Positions 12,545 to 26,439 of a DNA stretch of 64,000 bases are shown here, piece by piece. Where the stretch lies: NCBI GenBank assembly GCA_964565475.1, contig CAZMFB010000011.1, forward strand, positions 12,137 through 76,136, written 5' to 3'. The stretch's first letter is position 1. Each line of letters begins with the position of its first letter. The position numbers and the translations under genes were made by a program. The notes under the pieces are model-generated. The model did not search any database, was not told the DNA's origin, and was given only the letters and a program-made list of their open reading frames with translations. The stretch is from an uncultured Opitutaceae bacterium. GTDB taxonomy: Bacteria; Verrucomicrobiota; Verrucomicrobiia; Opitutales; Opitutaceae.

Positions 12545-12572
12545 GCCCGCCTTCGCCAAGGCTACGGCGGGC
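12545..12572. repeat. REP-like hairpin with GTA/GAA internal loop, just past the GIY-YIG stop
   Basis: GCCCGCC TTC GCC AA GGC TAC GGCGGGC; core CCTTCGCCAAGGCTACGG identical to the copy at 17610-17635. Confidence 0.85.
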
Positions 12573-12578
12573 AGTATT

Positions 12579-12827
12579 CTATTTCGGCCAGAGTCGTTTG
12601 ACGGCAAAGGCCTTGCCGGAATGCGACTTCAGGTAGTGCTCAAAAGCCAAGGCCTGATGTTTGTCACTGAAGGCCAGATAGGTCTCCAGGCGCCAAGGGA
12701 TGAACTTCGAAGTATGCGGGACCAATCCGGCGTTGTGAAACGGTAGGCGCTTCCTCAAGTCACGGGTGTAGCCCACATAGGTTTGCTCAGGGCGGGTTTC
12801 GCTGCGGAGGAGGTAAACGTAGTGCAT
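12579..12827 (-). CDS. Stand-alone GIY-YIG nuclease family protein (82 aa)
   Basis: YVY..YVG motif pair, conserved R, HN, E and YLKS; lower GC than flanking genes. Confidence 0.9.
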   Translation of the reverse strand: MHYVYLLRSETRPEQTYVGYTRDLRKRLPFHNAGLVPHTSKFIPWRLETYLAFSDKHQALAFEHYLKSHSGKAFAVKRLWPK

Positions 12828-12835
12828 GACAAGTA

Positions 12836-12959
12836 GAGCCCGTGCTTCGCTCTACGAGCTTCGCAGGGCTCCATTCTTCGCTCGTAATTTTGGGAGCGAA
12901 ACAGAGCGTCACCTGATTGGCAATGGCAGCGCCATGCGTAGCCCCAAAGGGGCGAAGAA
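12836..12959 (-). repeat. Structured element abutting the tmRNA 3' end; homologous to 63510-63618
   Basis: Two internal-loop hairpins; 13-bp inverted repeat 12869-12881/12952-12964; GCGCCATGCGTAGC shared with the tRNA-Gly copy. Confidence 0.85.
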
Positions 12960-13309
12960 TGGAGGTGAGGGGAGTTGAACCCCTGTGCCCCGGGCCTTCA
13001 CGCACAGCATCTACCTATATAGCGTCGGTTTGGATCTCGCCTCGGGCGGCGCGTGGACGCGCGCTCCGCCTTCGGCCAGCCGTGGTTGAAGATACGGCGG
13101 CGGGGTCACGACGGCCCCCACCGCTATTCCTGCTGTCGACGTTCCCAGCCCCTAGCAGGAGTCAGAGTGGGAACGTGACCGCACTTAGGCGGCCATTAGC
13201 ATTTCTTCGTTGTTGCCATTTGTTTTTTCGAAGGGGGATTAACGAGAGGCCCCCGACTCTCGACAGGCAGCTGCGCGCTCCAACCAAGGGTCGAATCCGG
13301 AACACCCCC
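12960..13309 (-). ncRNA. ssrA: tmRNA; tag peptide (A)GNNEEMLMAA at 13217-13185; CCA not encoded
   Basis: 5' GGGGGTGTTCCGGATTCGAC, acceptor stem GGGGGTG/CACCTCC with G3-U, T arm GGTTCAACTCC, tag ORF ending AA-stop. Confidence 0.96.
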
Positions 13310-16495: not shown

Positions 16496-17419
16496 TCAGT
16501 TGACCGGGGGCGTGAAGGCGAAGGACTCGATCGTCATCGGCTCGTTGAGCCGGATGTTGCGGAGCTGCATGACCTGTTGCCCCGGTTGGCCGCCGGAAAT
16601 GAAATGCAGCTCGTAGCGCACGATCAGGCCGTTCGATGCGATGAAGATCCGGTGCGTGAAGGCCGATCTCCCGCCGCCCTCGACGTTGCCGTGCGGATAA
16701 TAATACGAGATGACCTGGCAGGCGACGCCTTCGAGCACGCACGGATCCTCGAGGCGGAAGTTCTGCGGGTAGCGGGTGAAATGATAGAGGTGGCTGATCC
16801 CGTCGTTGAAATTGAAGAAGGTCTGGAGCGCGATGCTGTCCCAGAGGCGGATATTGCCGCCGTCCTTTTTGGTGCGCTCGGTTTGAATCAGCCCGCCCGC
16901 CGCCAACCCGGAGGCCTGCCTGGCGGCGAGGGCCGGGTCGTGCGGACCGGGTTCGAAGAACGGCAGCTCGAAAACGTGATCGGTTTGGCGGGCGAATTGC
17001 GCCGCCTGCACATCGAGCCCGCCGGCGGAAGGATCGGCGGTCACGACCAATCCGATCGGGTTGGTCGTGGGCTGCCACTTGCGCTCGCGGTTGAAGTTCT
17101 TCGGCACGTAGGTGTAGGTCAGCTCGCCGTCGGAACCGATGACGTTGGGGAAGGCCGGTTCGGCCATGCGGGTGAAGATGAGGCGCGCGTAGTTGGGCTT
17201 CAGCAGCCGCGCGTGGCCTTCGACGACCTGTTTGCGCAGGTCGGAGTTCACGGTGTAGGTGAAGTCGGCCGACATGGTCTGCAACGCCGCGTAGGCGGCG
17301 CTCATCTGGGTGAAGATCTCGGCCACGGCCTTTTCGGTCTCGGGGTCGGCGCGGAGCAGCGATGTAGGCGAGCCGAAGAACAGAATCGCAACCAAGGCGG
17401 AGAGCGGGCGCGTTTTCAT
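16496..17419 (-). CDS. Secreted protein with a LolA/DUF2092-like N- and C-terminus
   Basis: Signal peptide; TMSADFTY...LLKPNYARL, SDG and C-terminal ESFAFTPP resemble LolA-fold proteins. Confidence 0.6.
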   Translation of the reverse strand: MKTRPLSALVAILFFGSPTSLLRADPETEKAVAEIFTQMSAAYAALQTMSADFTYTVNSDLRKQVVEGHARLLKPNYARLIFTRMAEPAFPNVIGSDGELTYTYVPKNFNRERKWQPTTNPIGLVVTADPSAGGLDVQAAQFARQTDHVFELPFFEPGPHDPALAARQASGLAAGGLIQTERTKKDGGNIRLWDSIALQTFFNFNDGISHLYHFTRYPQNFRLEDPCVLEGVACQVISYYYPHGNVEGGGRSAFTHRIFIASNGLIVRYELHFISGGQPGQQVMQLRNIRLNEPMTIESFAFTPPVN

Positions 17420-17493
17420 GGTCGGGTGAGATTTGCAATCCTGCCGATGGCGGAAGTTTCGCCGGCTTCAGCAGAGTTCGCAAGCCGTGATCC

Positions 17494-17523
17494 AAAACAA
17501 AAGGCGCGCTGACGGCGCGCCTT
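17494..17523 (-). terminator. Intrinsic terminator after the distal putA end copy
   Basis: AAGGCGCGC/GCGCGCCTT stem followed by TTGTTTT on the minus strand. Confidence 0.75.
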
Positions 17524-17546
17524 GATGGGATAGCTAGAGCGAAAGT

Positions 17547-17609
17547 TTACTCTTCGTCCGGCGGGGTGAAACCGCGACGTAGGGTATTTTCGGCGATGAG
17601 CCGCGGGAA
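17547..17609 (-). repeat. Second copy of the putA 3' end ([24 protein letters not shown]), synonymously diverged
   Basis: Encodes the same 20 aa plus TAA as 17653-17715; 16 nt differences in 63, all silent. Confidence 0.95.
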
Positions 17610-17635
17610 TCCTCCTTCGCCAAGGCTACGGAGGA
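17610..17635. repeat. REP-like GTA/GAA hairpin abutting the duplicated putA end
   Basis: TCCTCC TTC GCC AA GGC TAC GGAGGA; outer stem covaries with the 12545-12572 copy. Confidence 0.85.
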
Positions 17636-17652
17636 CGGGGCTAGTGCGAAAA

Positions 17653-20652
17653 TTATTCCTCGTCGGGGGGAGTAAAGCCCCTGCGTAGCGTATTTTCCGC
17701 AATGAGTCGTGGAAACAGGAAGTTCTCGAGGTATTCGCGGCCGCCGGCCTTGGTGCCGCCGCCGGACATCTTGAAGCCGCCGAACGGGTGGCGTTGCACG
17801 ATGGCGCCGGTGCAGCCGCGGTTGATGTAGAGGTTGCCGACGAGGAACTCCTGCCGCGCGCGCTCGATGGCCTTGGGACTGCGCGAGAAGAAGCCGCCGG
17901 TGAGGGCGTAGTCGTTGTCGTTGGCCCAGGCGAAGGCTTCGTCAAGGTCCTTGGCCTTGAGGATGGCGAGCACGGGGCCGAAGATTTCCTCGCGGACGAT
18001 CTTGTGGTCGGGCTTGCAGCCGGTGAACACGGCCGGGGGCACGTAGTAGCCGCCGCTGGCGACGAGCTCGGGGGACAGCGTGGCCTGCCACGCGAGCTTC
18101 GACTCCTTCTTGCCCGCCTCGATGTAGCCGAGGATGGATTTCTGCGCGGCCTCGTCGATGACGGGGTTGACGATGGTGCCGGGCAGCGAGGGATCGCCGA
18201 CGGGGATGGTCGGGCAGGCGGAGAGGAAGCGCTCGACGAAGTGGTCGTAGACGTCCTCGAGCACGATGAGGCGGGAGAGGGCGGAGCACTTCTGGCCGGC
18301 GAAGCCGAAGGCGCTGTAGAGCGCGGCGGGGATGGCCTCGTCGAGATCGGCGTCGTTGTCGATGATCATGGCGTTCTTGCCGCCCATCTCGCAGACGACC
18401 TTCTTGAGGTTGAGCTGGCCGGGCTTGGTCTGGCCGGCTTCCGCCCAGATGCCGAGGCCGACCTCGCGCGAGCCGGTGAAGGCGATGAAGTCCACCTTGG
18501 GGTGCGCGACGAGGTGCGCGCCGGCGTCGGCGCCGGAGCAGGGCAGGTAGTGCAACGCGCCCGCGGGCACGCCGGCGGCCACCATGATCTCCATCAGGTA
18601 GGCGCCGATGATGGAGGTCTGGCGCGCGGGCTTGATGATGACGCAATTGCCGGCGACGAGCGGGGCGACGGTGAGGCCGGTGAGGATCGCCAGCGGGAAA
18701 TTCCACGGCGCCACGGCGACGCCGACGCCGCGGGGCGTCCAGACCTGCACGCAGCTCTCGCCGGGCACGGCCTGCGTGACGACGGGCTTGGCCATGCGGC
18801 GCATCTCGACGGCGTAGAAGCGGAGGAAATCGATGGCCTCGGAGGTGTCGCCGTCGGCCTCGACCCAGGGCTTGCCGCCCTCGAGGATGAGGAGCGAATT
18901 GATCTCCAGGCGGCGCGACTCCATGAGGTCGGCGGCTCGCTCCAGGATCTTGGCGCGTTCGTCGACGGGTGTGACGCGCCATTTCGGGAAGAAGGCGACG
19001 GAGGCGGCGACGGCGTCCTCGGCGTCCTGCACGCTGCCCTTGGCCCAGTAACCGACGACCTGCTTCGGGCGGGCGGGATTGACGGAGGGCAGGAAGGGGC
19101 GGTCGGTGACTTTTTTGCCGTTGATGATGCAGGGCCATTTCTGGCCGAGCTTGGTGGTCTCGAAGTCCTTCAACGCGGCGCGCTGCTTCTCGCGGTTGGT
19201 GGCGAGGGTGTAGTCGGTATTGGCGGCGTTGACGAACGAGCCGGCGGGGCGCGGTTTGCGGGCGAGCGGCTCGGGAGCGGCGGCGATCTGGTCGACGGGG
19301 TTGCCGAGGAGGGCGGTGAGGCTGGCCTCGCCCATATTTTTGATGCGGAGGAAGCCTTCGTTGGAGGTGTTCTCGAGGAGGCGGCGGACGAGGTAGGCCA
19401 TGCCGGGCAACAATTCGCCGACGGGGCAATACTCGCGCACGCGGTGGCCCATCTGGAGGAGCGACAGCTTCAGCTCGTCGGCCATGCCGTAGAGGGCCTG
19501 GAACTCGTAGTGCTTCGGGTGGACGCCGAGGCGCTCGGCCTGCGCGATGGCATGGGCGCAGGAGCGGACGTTGTGCGAGGCGAAGTTGGGCGTGACGAGG
19601 TCGGCGTTCTCGAGGAGGAAGACGGTGAGCTTCTCGTAGTTGGCGTCGGACTCGGGCTTCTTCGACCAGACGGGGATGGGCCATTCCTTCTGCTGGGCGT
19701 TGACGGTCTCGTAATCCCAGTAGGCGCCCTTGACGAGGCGGACGTTGAGCGGGCGGTTGTGCTTCCGCGCCCAGGCGACGAGGTCGCGGAGGTCGGCCTC
19801 GCAGTCGCGCAGGTAGGCCTGCATGGCGATACCGATGGCGGGCTTCTGGCGGAATTCCTCCTCCTCGAAGATGGACTTGAAGAGCGCGAGCGTGAGGTCC
19901 TTCAGCTTGTAGCTCTCCATGTCGAAGTTGACGAGCGCGCCGACCTCGGCGGCCCGGCGGAGAATGGGGCGGAGGCGGAGCTTGAGGGCGTTGATGGAAT
20001 TCTCCGGGTCGGCCGGATGCACCTCGGGCGTGAGGGCGGAGATCTTGACGGAGAGGTTGAGGCGCGGCAGCGGGCCCTTGGGGCCGACGTCGGAGACGCA
20101 GGGCTCGGACTCCTTGGCGTAGAACTTCGAGACCGAGTCGAGGATCTCGAGGTTGCGCTTCAGGAAGACGTCGGCCTCGGCCTCGCTCACGACCGCCTCG
20201 CCGAGGAGGTCGATGGTGGTGGCGAGCCCGAGCTTCATGTTCCTCTTGATCTGCTTGAGCAGGTCCTCGCCGGTCTCGCCGGCGACGAACTGGCCGGCCA
20301 TGTCCACGATCTGGGCCTTGACCGGGCCGGCGACGAGCGCGGGCGCGAAGGACGAGGCGGCGAGGCCGGCCTTGAGGGCGGGGTTGAGCTCGACGGCCTT
20401 GTCACCTAGGTATTCCTGGAGATGGCGGACGATTTCGCCGGAGGAATTGAGCGAGGGGAGGACGTCGACGAAGCGGAAGAGCTGGGTCTTGAAGGCCGGA
20501 TCCTTCATCGACCAGTCCATGAGGCGGGCGTAGGCGCCCTTCTTGGAGAACAAGGCCGGGGGCGGCTGCTTGTCCATCAGGGCGAAGAGCTGTTCGCCCT
20601 TGGCGCGAACGGCGGCTTCGATCTTGGGGTCGGGGACGAGGAAGGTGGTCAT
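17653..20652 (-). CDS. putA: Bifunctional proline dehydrogenase/P5C dehydrogenase
   Basis: [66 protein letters not shown]. Confidence 0.96.
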
Positions 20653-20873
20653 GGCGAGGGCGGGGCGGGCAGGGTGGCCCGGGGTCACGTGGTTTGGCAA
20701 GCGGACGAAGGACGCCCGCGCGCGGGTTGAACCGCCACTTATGCAGCGGGTTAGGCGGGCGTGCCGGCGAAGCGGATTCGAGCGGCGGTCGAGACCGGTT
20801 ATGAGCTTGGCGGAGCGCGATTTAGGTGACAGGAGGAATCTGCAACTTAACTACGTCGCGCCGTGTATTGAGC

Positions 20874-24553: not shown

Positions 24554-25675
24554 ATGATTCTCCCGGGCAAAACCATCGGCGTGCTGGGCGGCGGGCAGCT
24601 CGGGCGCATGCTGGCGCAGGCGGCCAACCGTGTCGGTTACCGCGTGCATGTCTACGAGCCGCAGGCCAACGGCCCGGCCGGCGCCGTGGCGCAAAAGGAG
24701 GTCAACGCCCCCTACGACGACCTCGCCGCCCTGTCGGCCTTCGCGCAGGAGTGCGACGTGCTGACCTACGAGTTCGAGAACGTGCCGGCCGCTCCGCTCA
24801 AGGCCATCGAGGGCCTGACCAAGCTGCGCCCGCATTGGAGCGTGCTCGAGACCTGCCAGAACCGCTCGCGCGAGAAGCGCTGGTTGCGCGATCACAAGTT
24901 TCCGCACGCGCGCTTCGAGGAGGTCGCCGCCGGTGGCGACCTCGCGGCGGGCATCCGTGCCGTGGGTGTGCCCTGCGTGGTGAAGACGGCGGACTTCGGC
25001 TACGACGGGAAGGGCCAGCTCAAGGTCATGGCGGAAACCGACATCACCGCCGCCGGGGCGCGGTTCGCCGGGCAACCGGTGGTGATCGAGCAGTTCGTGG
25101 ATTTCGCGTGCGAGATCTCCGTCGTGCTGGCCCGCAGCGAGTCGGCGGCCGTGCGGGTGTTCCCCGTGGTGGAGAACATCCACACGAACCACATCCTGGA
25201 TTTTTCCATCGTGCCGGCGCGCGTGCCGCCGGAGTCTGCCGCCGCGGCGGAGAAGATGGCGCGCGTGCTCGCGGAGAAGATCGGGCTCGTCGGCGTGATG
25301 GGTGTGGAGATGTTCGTGACGCAGGACGGCGCGGTGCTGATCAATGAGCTGGCGCCGCGCACGCACAACAGCGGGCACTACACGATCGACGCCTGTCCGG
25401 TGTCGCAGTTCGAGCAGCAGGTGCGGGCCATCTGCGGCCTGCCGCTGGGCGACACGCGCCTGCTCACGCCGGTCGTGATGGTGAACATCCTCGGCGACGC
25501 GTGGTCGCGCGGAGAGCCCAACTGGAAGGACCTGCTCGCGCAACCGGCCGCGCGGCTGCATCTTTACGGCAAGGCCGAGGCGCGGCCCGGCCGGAAGATG
25601 GGCCACTTCACCGTCACGGCGCGCGACGCCGACATGGCCCTCGAGATGGCGCAGAAATACCAGGCGCGGTTGTGA
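24554..25675 (+). CDS. purK: N5-CAIR synthase
   Basis: GGGQLGRM, TYEFEN, GYDGKGQ, NELAPRTHNSGH, HLYGK..RKMGH. Confidence 0.97.
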   Translation: MILPGKTIGVLGGGQLGRMLAQAANRVGYRVHVYEPQANGPAGAVAQKEVNAPYDDLAALSAFAQECDVLTYEFENVPAAPLKAIEGLTKLRPHWSVLETCQNRSREKRWLRDHKFPHARFEEVAAGGDLAAGIRAVGVPCVVKTADFGYDGKGQLKVMAETDITAAGARFAGQPVVIEQFVDFACEISVVLARSESAAVRVFPVVENIHTNHILDFSIVPARVPPESAAAAEKMARVLAEKIGLVGVMGVEMFVTQDGAVLINELAPRTHNSGHYTIDACPVSQFEQQVRAICGLPLGDTRLLTPVVMVNILGDAWSRGEPNWKDLLAQPAARLHLYGKAEARPGRKMGHFTVTARDADMALEMAQKYQARL

Positions 25676-25733
25676 GCAGAGCGTGTCTGTCCCGCCGCTT
25701 GACTATGCTTGGGCGGGAAACATCGTTCCGCGC

Positions 25734-25922
25734 ATGAGCACGAGCGCCCAGCCCGCGATACGCGAAGTCGGTAAGCTGACCGCTTCCGCGCTGGAGCGTT
25801 TCGGCCGCAATCAACGCCGGACGGCGCTCGTCGCACCCAAAGCAGGATGGCCGAAGGGGGTGCAGCGTTTCCGCGACTGGCGGGAATTCGAGACATGGCA
25901 ACGGCGCCGCCGAGCGGACTGA
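25734..25922 (+). CDS. Small basic protein preceding a nucleotidyltransferase (putative TA-like partner)
   Basis: 62 aa, C-terminal PKGVQRFRDWREFETW; overlaps the downstream gene start. Confidence 0.65.
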   Translation: MSTSAQPAIREVGKLTASALERFGRNQRRTALVAPKAGWPKGVQRFRDWREFETWQRRRRAD

Positions 25923-26380
25923 CAAGGCCGCCGGACGACCACGATCTCGTGGCGCTGGCCCGGGAATTGAACCGGTTGGGCGCGCGCTATGTGGTGATCG
26001 GCGGCGTGGCGATGAATCGCCTCGGTTTCATCCGGGCCACGGAAGACTTGGACCTGCTGATCGCGCGGGACCGGGAAAACCAGACCTTGGTGCGCCGGGC
26101 CTTGGAAATCCTGCCCGACAAGGCGGTGCGCGAACTCGGTCCGGACGAGGATCTCGCCACTTGGGTGGTGGTGCGGGTGAACGACGTTATCACGGTCGAT
26201 TTGATGACGGAGGCCTCGGGCATCGGCTACGCCGAGGCGGAGACAGGCATCGAGTGGATTGAGCTAGAGGGGGTGAAGGTGCCGTTCGCCAGCGCCGAAC
26301 TGATGCTCCGCTTCAAGCAGAGCAAACGCGAGAAGGACGTGTTGGACAGGCAGTTTCTGGAGAACCGAAGAAAATCATGA
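25895..26380 (+). CDS. Pol-beta-fold nucleotidyltransferase (DUF6036/AbiEii-like)
   Basis: YVVIGGVAM..G..RATEDLDLL; C-terminal K..SKREKDVLD. Confidence 0.85.
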   Translation: MATAPPSGLTRPPDDHDLVALARELNRLGARYVVIGGVAMNRLGFIRATEDLDLLIARDRENQTLVRRALEILPDKAVRELGPDEDLATWVVVRVNDVITVDLMTEASGIGYAEAETGIEWIELEGVKVPFASAELMLRFKQSKREKDVLDRQFLENRRKS

Positions 26381-26382
26381 AC

Positions 26383-26439
26383 GCCCGCGACGCCGACATG
26401 GCCCTCGAGATGGCGTGGAAATACCAAGCACGACTGTGA
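26383..26439 (+). repeat. Second copy of the purK 3' end (direct repeat of 25619-25675)
   Basis: ARDADMALEMAWKYQARL-stop versus ARDADMALEMAQKYQARL-stop. Confidence 0.93.

Follow-up and report, generated by a model that had tools for sequence, protein, structure and literature searches.

The window analysed here, the whole stretch of 64,000 nucleotides from an uncultured Opitutaceae bacterium (genome G000), carries on its minus strand a host putA gene, whose last 20 codons and stop recur 106 bp downstream, beyond a short imperfect hairpin (Table 1). As a previous sequence-only reading of this DNA had reported, the two copies differ at 16 nucleotides in 15 of the 20 codons, with identical translation and stop. 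They form a 63-bp direct repeat of 75% identity with no cargo between them, the insert consisting of 43 non-coding bases in which no ORF fits. Just 3' of the two stops, in the spacer and after the orphan respectively, 11 of 12 bases are identical, and the two copies also have rare Leu and Asn codons in common.

Table 1. Features of the putA locus and of the small GIY-YIG locus, in window coordinates
Feature	Position	Strand	Basis
putA, bifunctional proline dehydrogenase / P5C dehydrogenase, host gene	17653..20700	-	extent as ORF; Pfam PutA_N, Pro_dh, Aldedh
In-use 3' end, allele A: last 20 codons and stop, rare codons	17653..17715	-	copy comparison, codon scores
Stretch replaced in allele B	17671..17716	-	runs X6, X7, X8; partly X10
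17-nt spacer 3' of the in-use stop, closing with a 4-nt tag ahead of the hairpin	17636..17652	-	
26-nt imperfect hairpin of a widespread repeat family; foot at 17610 touching the orphan	17610..17635	.	
Orphan 3' end: same 20 codons and stop, out of frame with putA	17547..17609	-	
Terminator-like stem (17501-17523) and T run, 3' of the orphan	17492..17523	-	
Single-domain GIY-YIG gene of 82 aa, 3' of tmRNA; candidate nuclease acting in trans	12579..12827	-	
Hairpin of the same family just 3' of the GIY-YIG gene; no displaced tmRNA end after it	12545..12572	.	

Codon usage and alleles of the putA ends

Silent changes make up 26% of the possible single changes in the orphan, so that 16 silent changes out of 16 have a probability of about 5e-10 under neutral decay, which bears out the earlier argument that decay cannot yield silent-only changes and that both copies were once working ends. 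The in-use end, correctly described as atypical in its codons, has a codon adaptation score of 0.24 as against 0.79-1.00 for the nine 20-codon blocks preceding it, and equally low scores occur in 3 of 1620 gene ends, itself included. The orphan, at 0.50, is more host-like as had been claimed, but only moderately so, this value being the 12th percentile. Between G000 and its sister genome G008, same-residue putA codons differ at 47 of 388 positions in the gene body, 8 of 17 in the orphan and 15 of 17 in the in-use end; rapid change is common to gene ends, with a mean codon difference of 41% over 253 orthologue pairs and a maximum of 73%. Were both ends drawn independently from host codon usage, about 9 of 20 codons would be expected to differ (p 0.003-0.012 for the observed 15); uniform codon usage predicts 13.6 (p 0.33). 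The sole terminator-like site in positions 17400-17800 does lie 3' of the orphan; the scan alone is weak, shuffled sequences giving 0.8 such sites, and the stem folds with a z of -4.4. It is likely that the orphan is the displaced resident end, and that the hairpin insert is the mark of a tiny mobile element which replaces gene ends without breaking the gene. A 307-aa LolA-like gene (NCBIfam match weak, below the cut-off) lies at 16496-17419 on the minus strand between putA and a transporter gene, unlike in G008, where the transporter is directly 3' of putA; the orphan itself may have arrived with this gene.

Runs from other studies contain the same layout. A single contig of run X4 (study P2; 17310-17746) spans both copies with 0 differences from G000, and one of run X5 (study P3; 17250-17746) does so with 2; at contig level the layout is therefore no assembly chimera, the mixture of strains that would have refuted the earlier reading. 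In each of runs X6, X7 and X8, all of one study, a single contig covers 17470-17740 and has 17 differences from G000, of which 16 were located, at 17671-17716. These define an allele B with 15 changed nucleotides in 11 of the 20 codons (one a Thr-to-Val change) and one in the codon before; the last five codons, spacer, hairpin, orphan and terminator are without located differences. Run X10, from another study and at a depth of 2.6, equals G000 up to 17670 and then has letters fitting allele B. Allele B uses common codons, and by hand counts differs from G008 in 3 of 15 codons, as against 13 of 15 for allele A. It is probably the later patch, because allele A and the orphan have rare codons and post-stop bases in common. 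The in-use putA end has been overwritten again within the species, with the hairpin and orphan unchanged. No collapsed or empty putA allele was seen in seven runs, whose contigs drop rare variants. At 17878-17995 of the window X4, X5 and X7 have several differences from G000 in common, which suggests more short recombination patches in putA.

The hairpin family and orphan ends at other genes

The 18-nt core of the putA hairpin is, as had been noticed, identical to that of the hairpin beside the GIY-YIG gene. It has 8 exact copies and 19 with one mismatch in G000, and therefore represents a repeat family rather than a private link between the two loci. The family has matches in 55 of 200 family genomes, and its copies span many phyla among the matches listed in a GTDB scan. 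Usually a 4-nt tag lies 5' of the hairpin, two spellings covering 81 of the 122 GTDB copies listed. Folding of the putA hairpin within 53 nt of context is no more stable than that of shuffled sequences (z -0.5 and -0.6); pairing of the arms is supported because 109 of the 122 listed GTDB copies stay complementary at the single position that the search pattern let vary. An Rfam search returned one chance-level match, at 15.8 bits against a cut-off of 45, and no RNA family. By eye, the hairpin is often inserted cleanly into other repeats. At L038:1019-1074 and at Bradyrhizobium loci, units lie within another copy of themselves and within other palindromic repeats, and no target duplication is clear.

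A scan of 2007 G000 genes for their own ends downstream returned 23 matches, comprising 5 paralogues, 1 N-gap artefact and 17 orphan ends (control, 0 of 900). The hairpin foot lies at the junction in 6 of the 17 against a background of 0.7%, in keeping with the predicted genome-wide association of end duplications with hairpins; as 11 of the 17 have no foot signal, other routes make similar scars. All seven short inserts (up to 125 nt) in G000 contain a hairpin, that of the seventh, at an aldehyde dehydrogenase gene, being reversed, and in the parC-like case the hairpin lies just outside the scored interval. Apparent duplications at C26:15111, C12:43267 and C14:27602 were set aside as N-gap artefacts. 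The name putA alone is Pfam-based; purL-like, parC-like, purK-like, leuS-like and aldehyde dehydrogenase serve here as provisional labels. Among 159 distinct hairpins of relatives, an orphan lies at this foot in 9 (4 previously found cases and 5 new ones) and on the other side in 0. Among hairpins at most 60 nt after a same-strand stop an orphan is present in 8 of 25; hairpin insertions are mostly without duplication. Beside the 122 listed GTDB hairpins no convincing orphan was found at a score of at least 35, about one third of these loci having little flank, and inspection by eye found two 3-codon orphan cases at a leuS-like gene.

The direction of replacement is clearest at the purL-like gene, which is duplicated in 2 of 20 loci. 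Here the orphan and the DNA downstream match the single end of G008, so that the orphan is native and the in-use copy, which differs from it by 4-5 residues, is the incoming one. Junctions differ between lineages at the parC-like gene, and between loci L303 and L391 at a second gene, from which it follows that the events recur. The parC-like gene has 1.5 kb of cargo between its copies in G000 and a minimal insert in G008, where its odd codons reach about 12 codons past the junction; locus L385 likewise has cargo between its copies, as have several hairpin-free orphans, where it consists of small gene pairs. The parC-like pair of L210 (G010) is as extreme as that of putA, with 17 silent differences and 1 amino-acid difference over 23 codons, and its junction is unlike those of G000 and G008. 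Gene ends with a hairpin and no orphan mostly have ordinary codons, and codon scores are lower on the in-use side in no more than 9 of 14 pairs (p 0.42).

Three readings of the orphan were considered and rejected. Frameshift or read-through use was dismissed on the orphan-to-hairpin offset, which varies from -4 to 0, and on the repeat spacing at putA, which is 105 or 106 across cases. Active avoidance of the orphan's codons predicts anti-correlation, and two-fold sites in 14 pairs gave independence (odds ratio 1.4, p 0.59), in an underpowered test whose pool was without the pairs from relatives G009, G302, L038, G010 and G008, of which that of G010 has a suggestive pattern by eye. RNA-guided self-avoidance with the orphan as guide was set aside given 0 matches to PF07282 (TnpB-type) in the one genome searched and young pairs that are identical at the junction.

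At 25673-26439 of the window (plus strand) a purK-like gene has its final 17 codons repeated 764 bp further on, beyond two small ORFs of 62 and 177 aa that are nucleotidyltransferase-like by eye and have no NCBIfam match; there is no hairpin at this junction, and the orphan begins right after the stop of the cargo gene. Further hairpin-free orphans of G000, at C14:52174, C23:24184, C30:7430, C2:111908 and C13:44967, flank toxin-antitoxin-like pairs or a transporter (labels by eye). These five possibly represent a second route to the same scar.

The putA junction in relatives and the candidate nuclease

The putA layout is present in 3 of 23 loci with an intact putA end (G000, G009 and G004). 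Searching 401 family genomes with a pattern joining the hairpin to the putA junction gave 4 matching genomes (control 0), the new one being G302 from another genus; one metagenome contig, L038, has the layout as well. The patterns that found G302 and L038 could detect this putA junction only, and two of the five cases were thereby selected for having the same junction. In all five the junction is the hairpin foot, where the sequence-only reading had placed the breakpoint, and all five inserts are minimal. The cargo that it had proposed to look for between the copies in relatives is absent from these five, and its idea that putA may hold the empty remnant of a larger cassette is not supported; a displaced tRNA end was found downstream of 0 of the 21 tRNA- or tmRNA-adjacent small GIY-YIG genes, although cargo is present at other genes. 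On a tree of 27 PutA proteins, built with the duplicated end removed, the four genome cases are scattered, and empty sisters group with two of them (G008 with G000, 100/98; G027 with G004, 99/99). The putA layout is real and recurrent and is no artefact.

Each putA pair mostly has residues of its own lineage, lineage-specific ones being found in both copies of G302, G004 and L038. The pairs range from near-identical to saturated, with 1 to 16 differences: 1 of the first 54 nt in G302, whose copies also have common post-stop bases, 5 silent codons in G004, 7 in L038 (hand count) and 15 in G000. In G009 decay of the orphan has begun; the in-use end has Thr as in G000 and G008, and the orphan Val as in most of the clade. 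The spacers of the five cases are similar in length and unlike each other in sequence, and the hairpins are mostly of the same minority arm variant (33 of the 122 GTDB copies listed). The earlier proposal that an incoming end replaced the resident one is supported by the native purL-like orphan, but its donor was usually close kin rather than a distant lineage, because the G302 copies are nearly identical and those of G000 have the rare Leu and Asn codons and the post-stop bases in common.

Besides the GIY-YIG gene in the window, G000 has a second small one on contig C29. Small GIY-YIG genes are found in 40 of 55 hairpin-positive as against 36 of 145 hairpin-negative genomes (odds ratio 8, kinship ignored). 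A hairpin lies within 300 nt of 13 out of 30 of these genes; of 92 control loci, taken whole and including several with orphans of their own, 10 have one. The gene is just 3' of a tRNA or tmRNA in 21 of these 30 (loci L395-L424), and likewise at 12579-13309 of the window. At such loci the hairpin often abuts the CCA end and a second, opposite hairpin precedes the gene; no description of this tRNA/tmRNA-hairpin-GIY-YIG arrangement, a REPtron-like unit, was found in the literature. Only 2 of 281 hairpin loci have a small GIY-YIG gene nearby, 0 of 96 gene-end loci have a GIY-YIG match, and G009 has the putA insert yet no match to the window protein at E 1e-12. The nearest solved chain to that protein is the UPF0213 protein 1ZG2 (E 2e-5). 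To our knowledge GIY-YIG enzymes cut, and joining activity is not established for them. Alternative candidates are provided by four Y1 transposase matches in G000, which also has a ComEC-family gene; in REP systems with a RAYT transposase, a GTAG-tagged palindrome adjoins a gene of the Y1 type. The window GIY-YIG protein is a candidate for a nuclease that acts in trans on the hairpin.

Origin of the insert and comparison with known systems

The reading we favour, at a probability of about one half, is a one-ended, homology-anchored insertion joined at the hairpin foot and followed by repeated overwriting of the in-use end, the enzyme being a candidate only. What has been observed of it is the layout, the foot junction, its recurrence, the one-sided orientation, the native purL-like orphan and the two in-use alleles. 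In some cell a hairpin unit of about 30 nt would have landed 10-35 nt after a stop codon; single-stranded DNA from such a hairpin-bearing cell, probably acquired through transformation, would pair by homology with the putA of a relative, and cleavage and joining at the hairpin foot would then connect the strand to a position within the final codons. A small GIY-YIG nuclease probably acts in trans at this step, and the other end would be resolved by ordinary recombination. Near-identical pairs would then tend to collapse and diverged ones to persist, and short patches from other lineages would later overwrite the in-use end, with selection acting on the protein; of these steps, uptake, the enzyme and collapse are inferred. 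Foot-joining leaves unexplained the fivefold use of the same putA codon, the excess of rare codons and the 15 of 20 differences against some 9 expected under host codon usage; the reversed hairpin at the aldehyde dehydrogenase gene, the lack of a nuclease match in G009 and the small number of hairpin loci with a GIY-YIG gene nearby also tell against it. In addition, SsnA cuts 5' of its tag, which by analogy would correspond here to the tag side on the sense strand and not to the foot (PMC11893778, partial text). A bolder extension, which we regard as doubtful, is that a coding-free hairpin mobilised by GIY-YIG makes the last codons of conserved genes exchangeable. It would spread in the manner of a recoded gene drive, but a natural one: arriving with a rescue end of its own, recombining by way of the end that it displaced, and kept stable by silent divergence.

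The same codon in five scattered cases, with spacers of similar length and, for the most part, one minority arm variant, could also reflect a junction that arose once in an old putA cassette, which has since spread as a unit by two crossovers or homing; the gene body would be its left arm, and the orphan, refreshed in each host, its right arm. The Thr and Val of the G009 copies are in line with such spread, and fungal mitochondrial hybrids work likewise (PMC3630166, partial text). We nevertheless consider it rather unlikely: the spacer sequences are unlike each other, both copies in G302, G004 and L038 have lineage-specific residues, two of the five cases were selected for the junction by the pattern used, other genes have different junctions, and seven runs contained no empty allele. 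Less probable again is a local long target duplication, in which insertion of the hairpin duplicates 60-80 bp of the host cell's sequence; rapid mutation of the upstream copy, next to the hairpin, would follow, with selection removing amino-acid changes. This is suggested by the near-identical G302 copies with their common post-stop bases, by the rare codons and 11 of 12 post-stop bases common to the G000 copies, by the odd codons past the parC-like junction in G008, and by a hand count against G008 which assigns 8 codon changes to the in-use side, 2 to the orphan side and 5 to neither with certainty. It is at odds with the 4-5 residues separating the purL-like in-use end from its native orphan, with the ordinary codons of most hairpin-bearing ends that have no orphan, with allele B as a block replacement resembling G008, and with the many hairpin insertions that lack a duplication.

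The remnant of an integrase island of the e14 kind, which delivered a new gene end and was then stripped of cargo until the hairpin was left, would explain the cargo between copies at the parC-like gene of G000, at L385 and at several hairpin-free orphans; but inserts end at the hairpin in all five putA cases and in all seven short cases of G000, and deletion would not stop there every time. Nor is any motif common to the seven left junctions by eye, or any integrase-sized ORF present within the inserts shown, and we disfavour this origin as improbable. An assembly chimera of two strains might be invoked from the three other apparent duplications that flank N gaps and from the existence of two alleles of the in-use end; with single contigs from studies P2 and P3 across both copies and the layout in four other lineages, it may be practically dismissed.

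Two questions are addressed by the putA locus, namely the spread of 30-nt palindromic repeats and the role of stand-alone GIY-YIG proteins outside the Ssn clade. As a candidate enzyme, a candidate substrate and a base-exact junction are in hand, one cleavage assay can test the enzyme link. The hairpin layout is a route to new 3' ends for essential-type genes without breakage, in a slot that is polymorphic within one species, and scars of this kind bias what codon usage and gene trees suggest about gene ends.

Several known systems resemble the putA locus in part, as judged from the available portions of the articles cited here. The e14 element in icd of E. coli is a 15 kb prophage with site-specific, SOS-induced excision and a displaced icdC; its insertion in the 3' part of the gene supplies a working end and leaves the other one behind as a fragment whose differences are mostly silent (PMC13626634). 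The same order of a working end upstream and a displaced native end downstream is found here, with its polarity clearest at the purL-like gene. Unlike e14, the putA insert is 43 non-coding bases, with no integrase or large island in any of the five minimal cases, ends at a hairpin foot, and has counterparts in many unrelated genes, with two junctions in one gene (contexts by eye), rather than one specific att core. Mobile endonuclease ORFs have generated fungal mitochondrial gene hybrids (Allomyces atp6; Glomus atp6, atp9, cox2 and nad3), in which an imported C-terminus is in use, the native one is displaced downstream, and the nuclease is of the GIY-YIG or LAGLIDADG type (PMC3630166). There the nuclease gene lies between the copies and its product cuts the double-stranded DNA of the empty allele, whereas the putA ends have no ORF between them; young hairpin pairs are also not recoded at the junction, and the near-identical copies of G302 argue against immunity of the filled allele by recoding.

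Long target duplication of restriction-modification genes yields repeats of more than 30 bp, often spanning the stop, with no integrase and mostly in competent species (PMC2853133). The putA locus likewise has a repeat above 30 bp, an empty relative (G008) and no mobility gene; however, the repeats of that system are near-identical and flank kilobase genes, in contrast to 75% identity and no cargo here, and the available part of the account mentions neither a hairpin junction nor silent saturation. SsnA, a small GIY-YIG nuclease, cuts single-stranded DNA beside its hairpin during transformation (PMC11893778), and a small single-domain GIY-YIG gene associated with a directional hairpin repeat of 20-50 nt is common to both systems. 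The Ssn substrate is likewise incoming single-stranded DNA; SsnA reduces integration instead of joining, gene-end duplication goes unmentioned in the portion at hand, and by eye the SRM pattern does not fit, since its post-tag position needs A or T and the hairpin has C. Homology-facilitated illegitimate recombination (PMC3240628) similarly combines homology at one end with a non-homologous join at the other, but at putA the join is fixed at the foot of a repeat and resident DNA is apparently not lost. The available main text of a survey of GTAG/CGTC repeats (PMC3733652) is without mention of GIY-YIG or duplication, and a search of the open-access literature found no description of hairpin-only gene-end replacement in bacteria. 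Gene-end replacement itself is already known, and the minimal hairpin form is a new variant of it.
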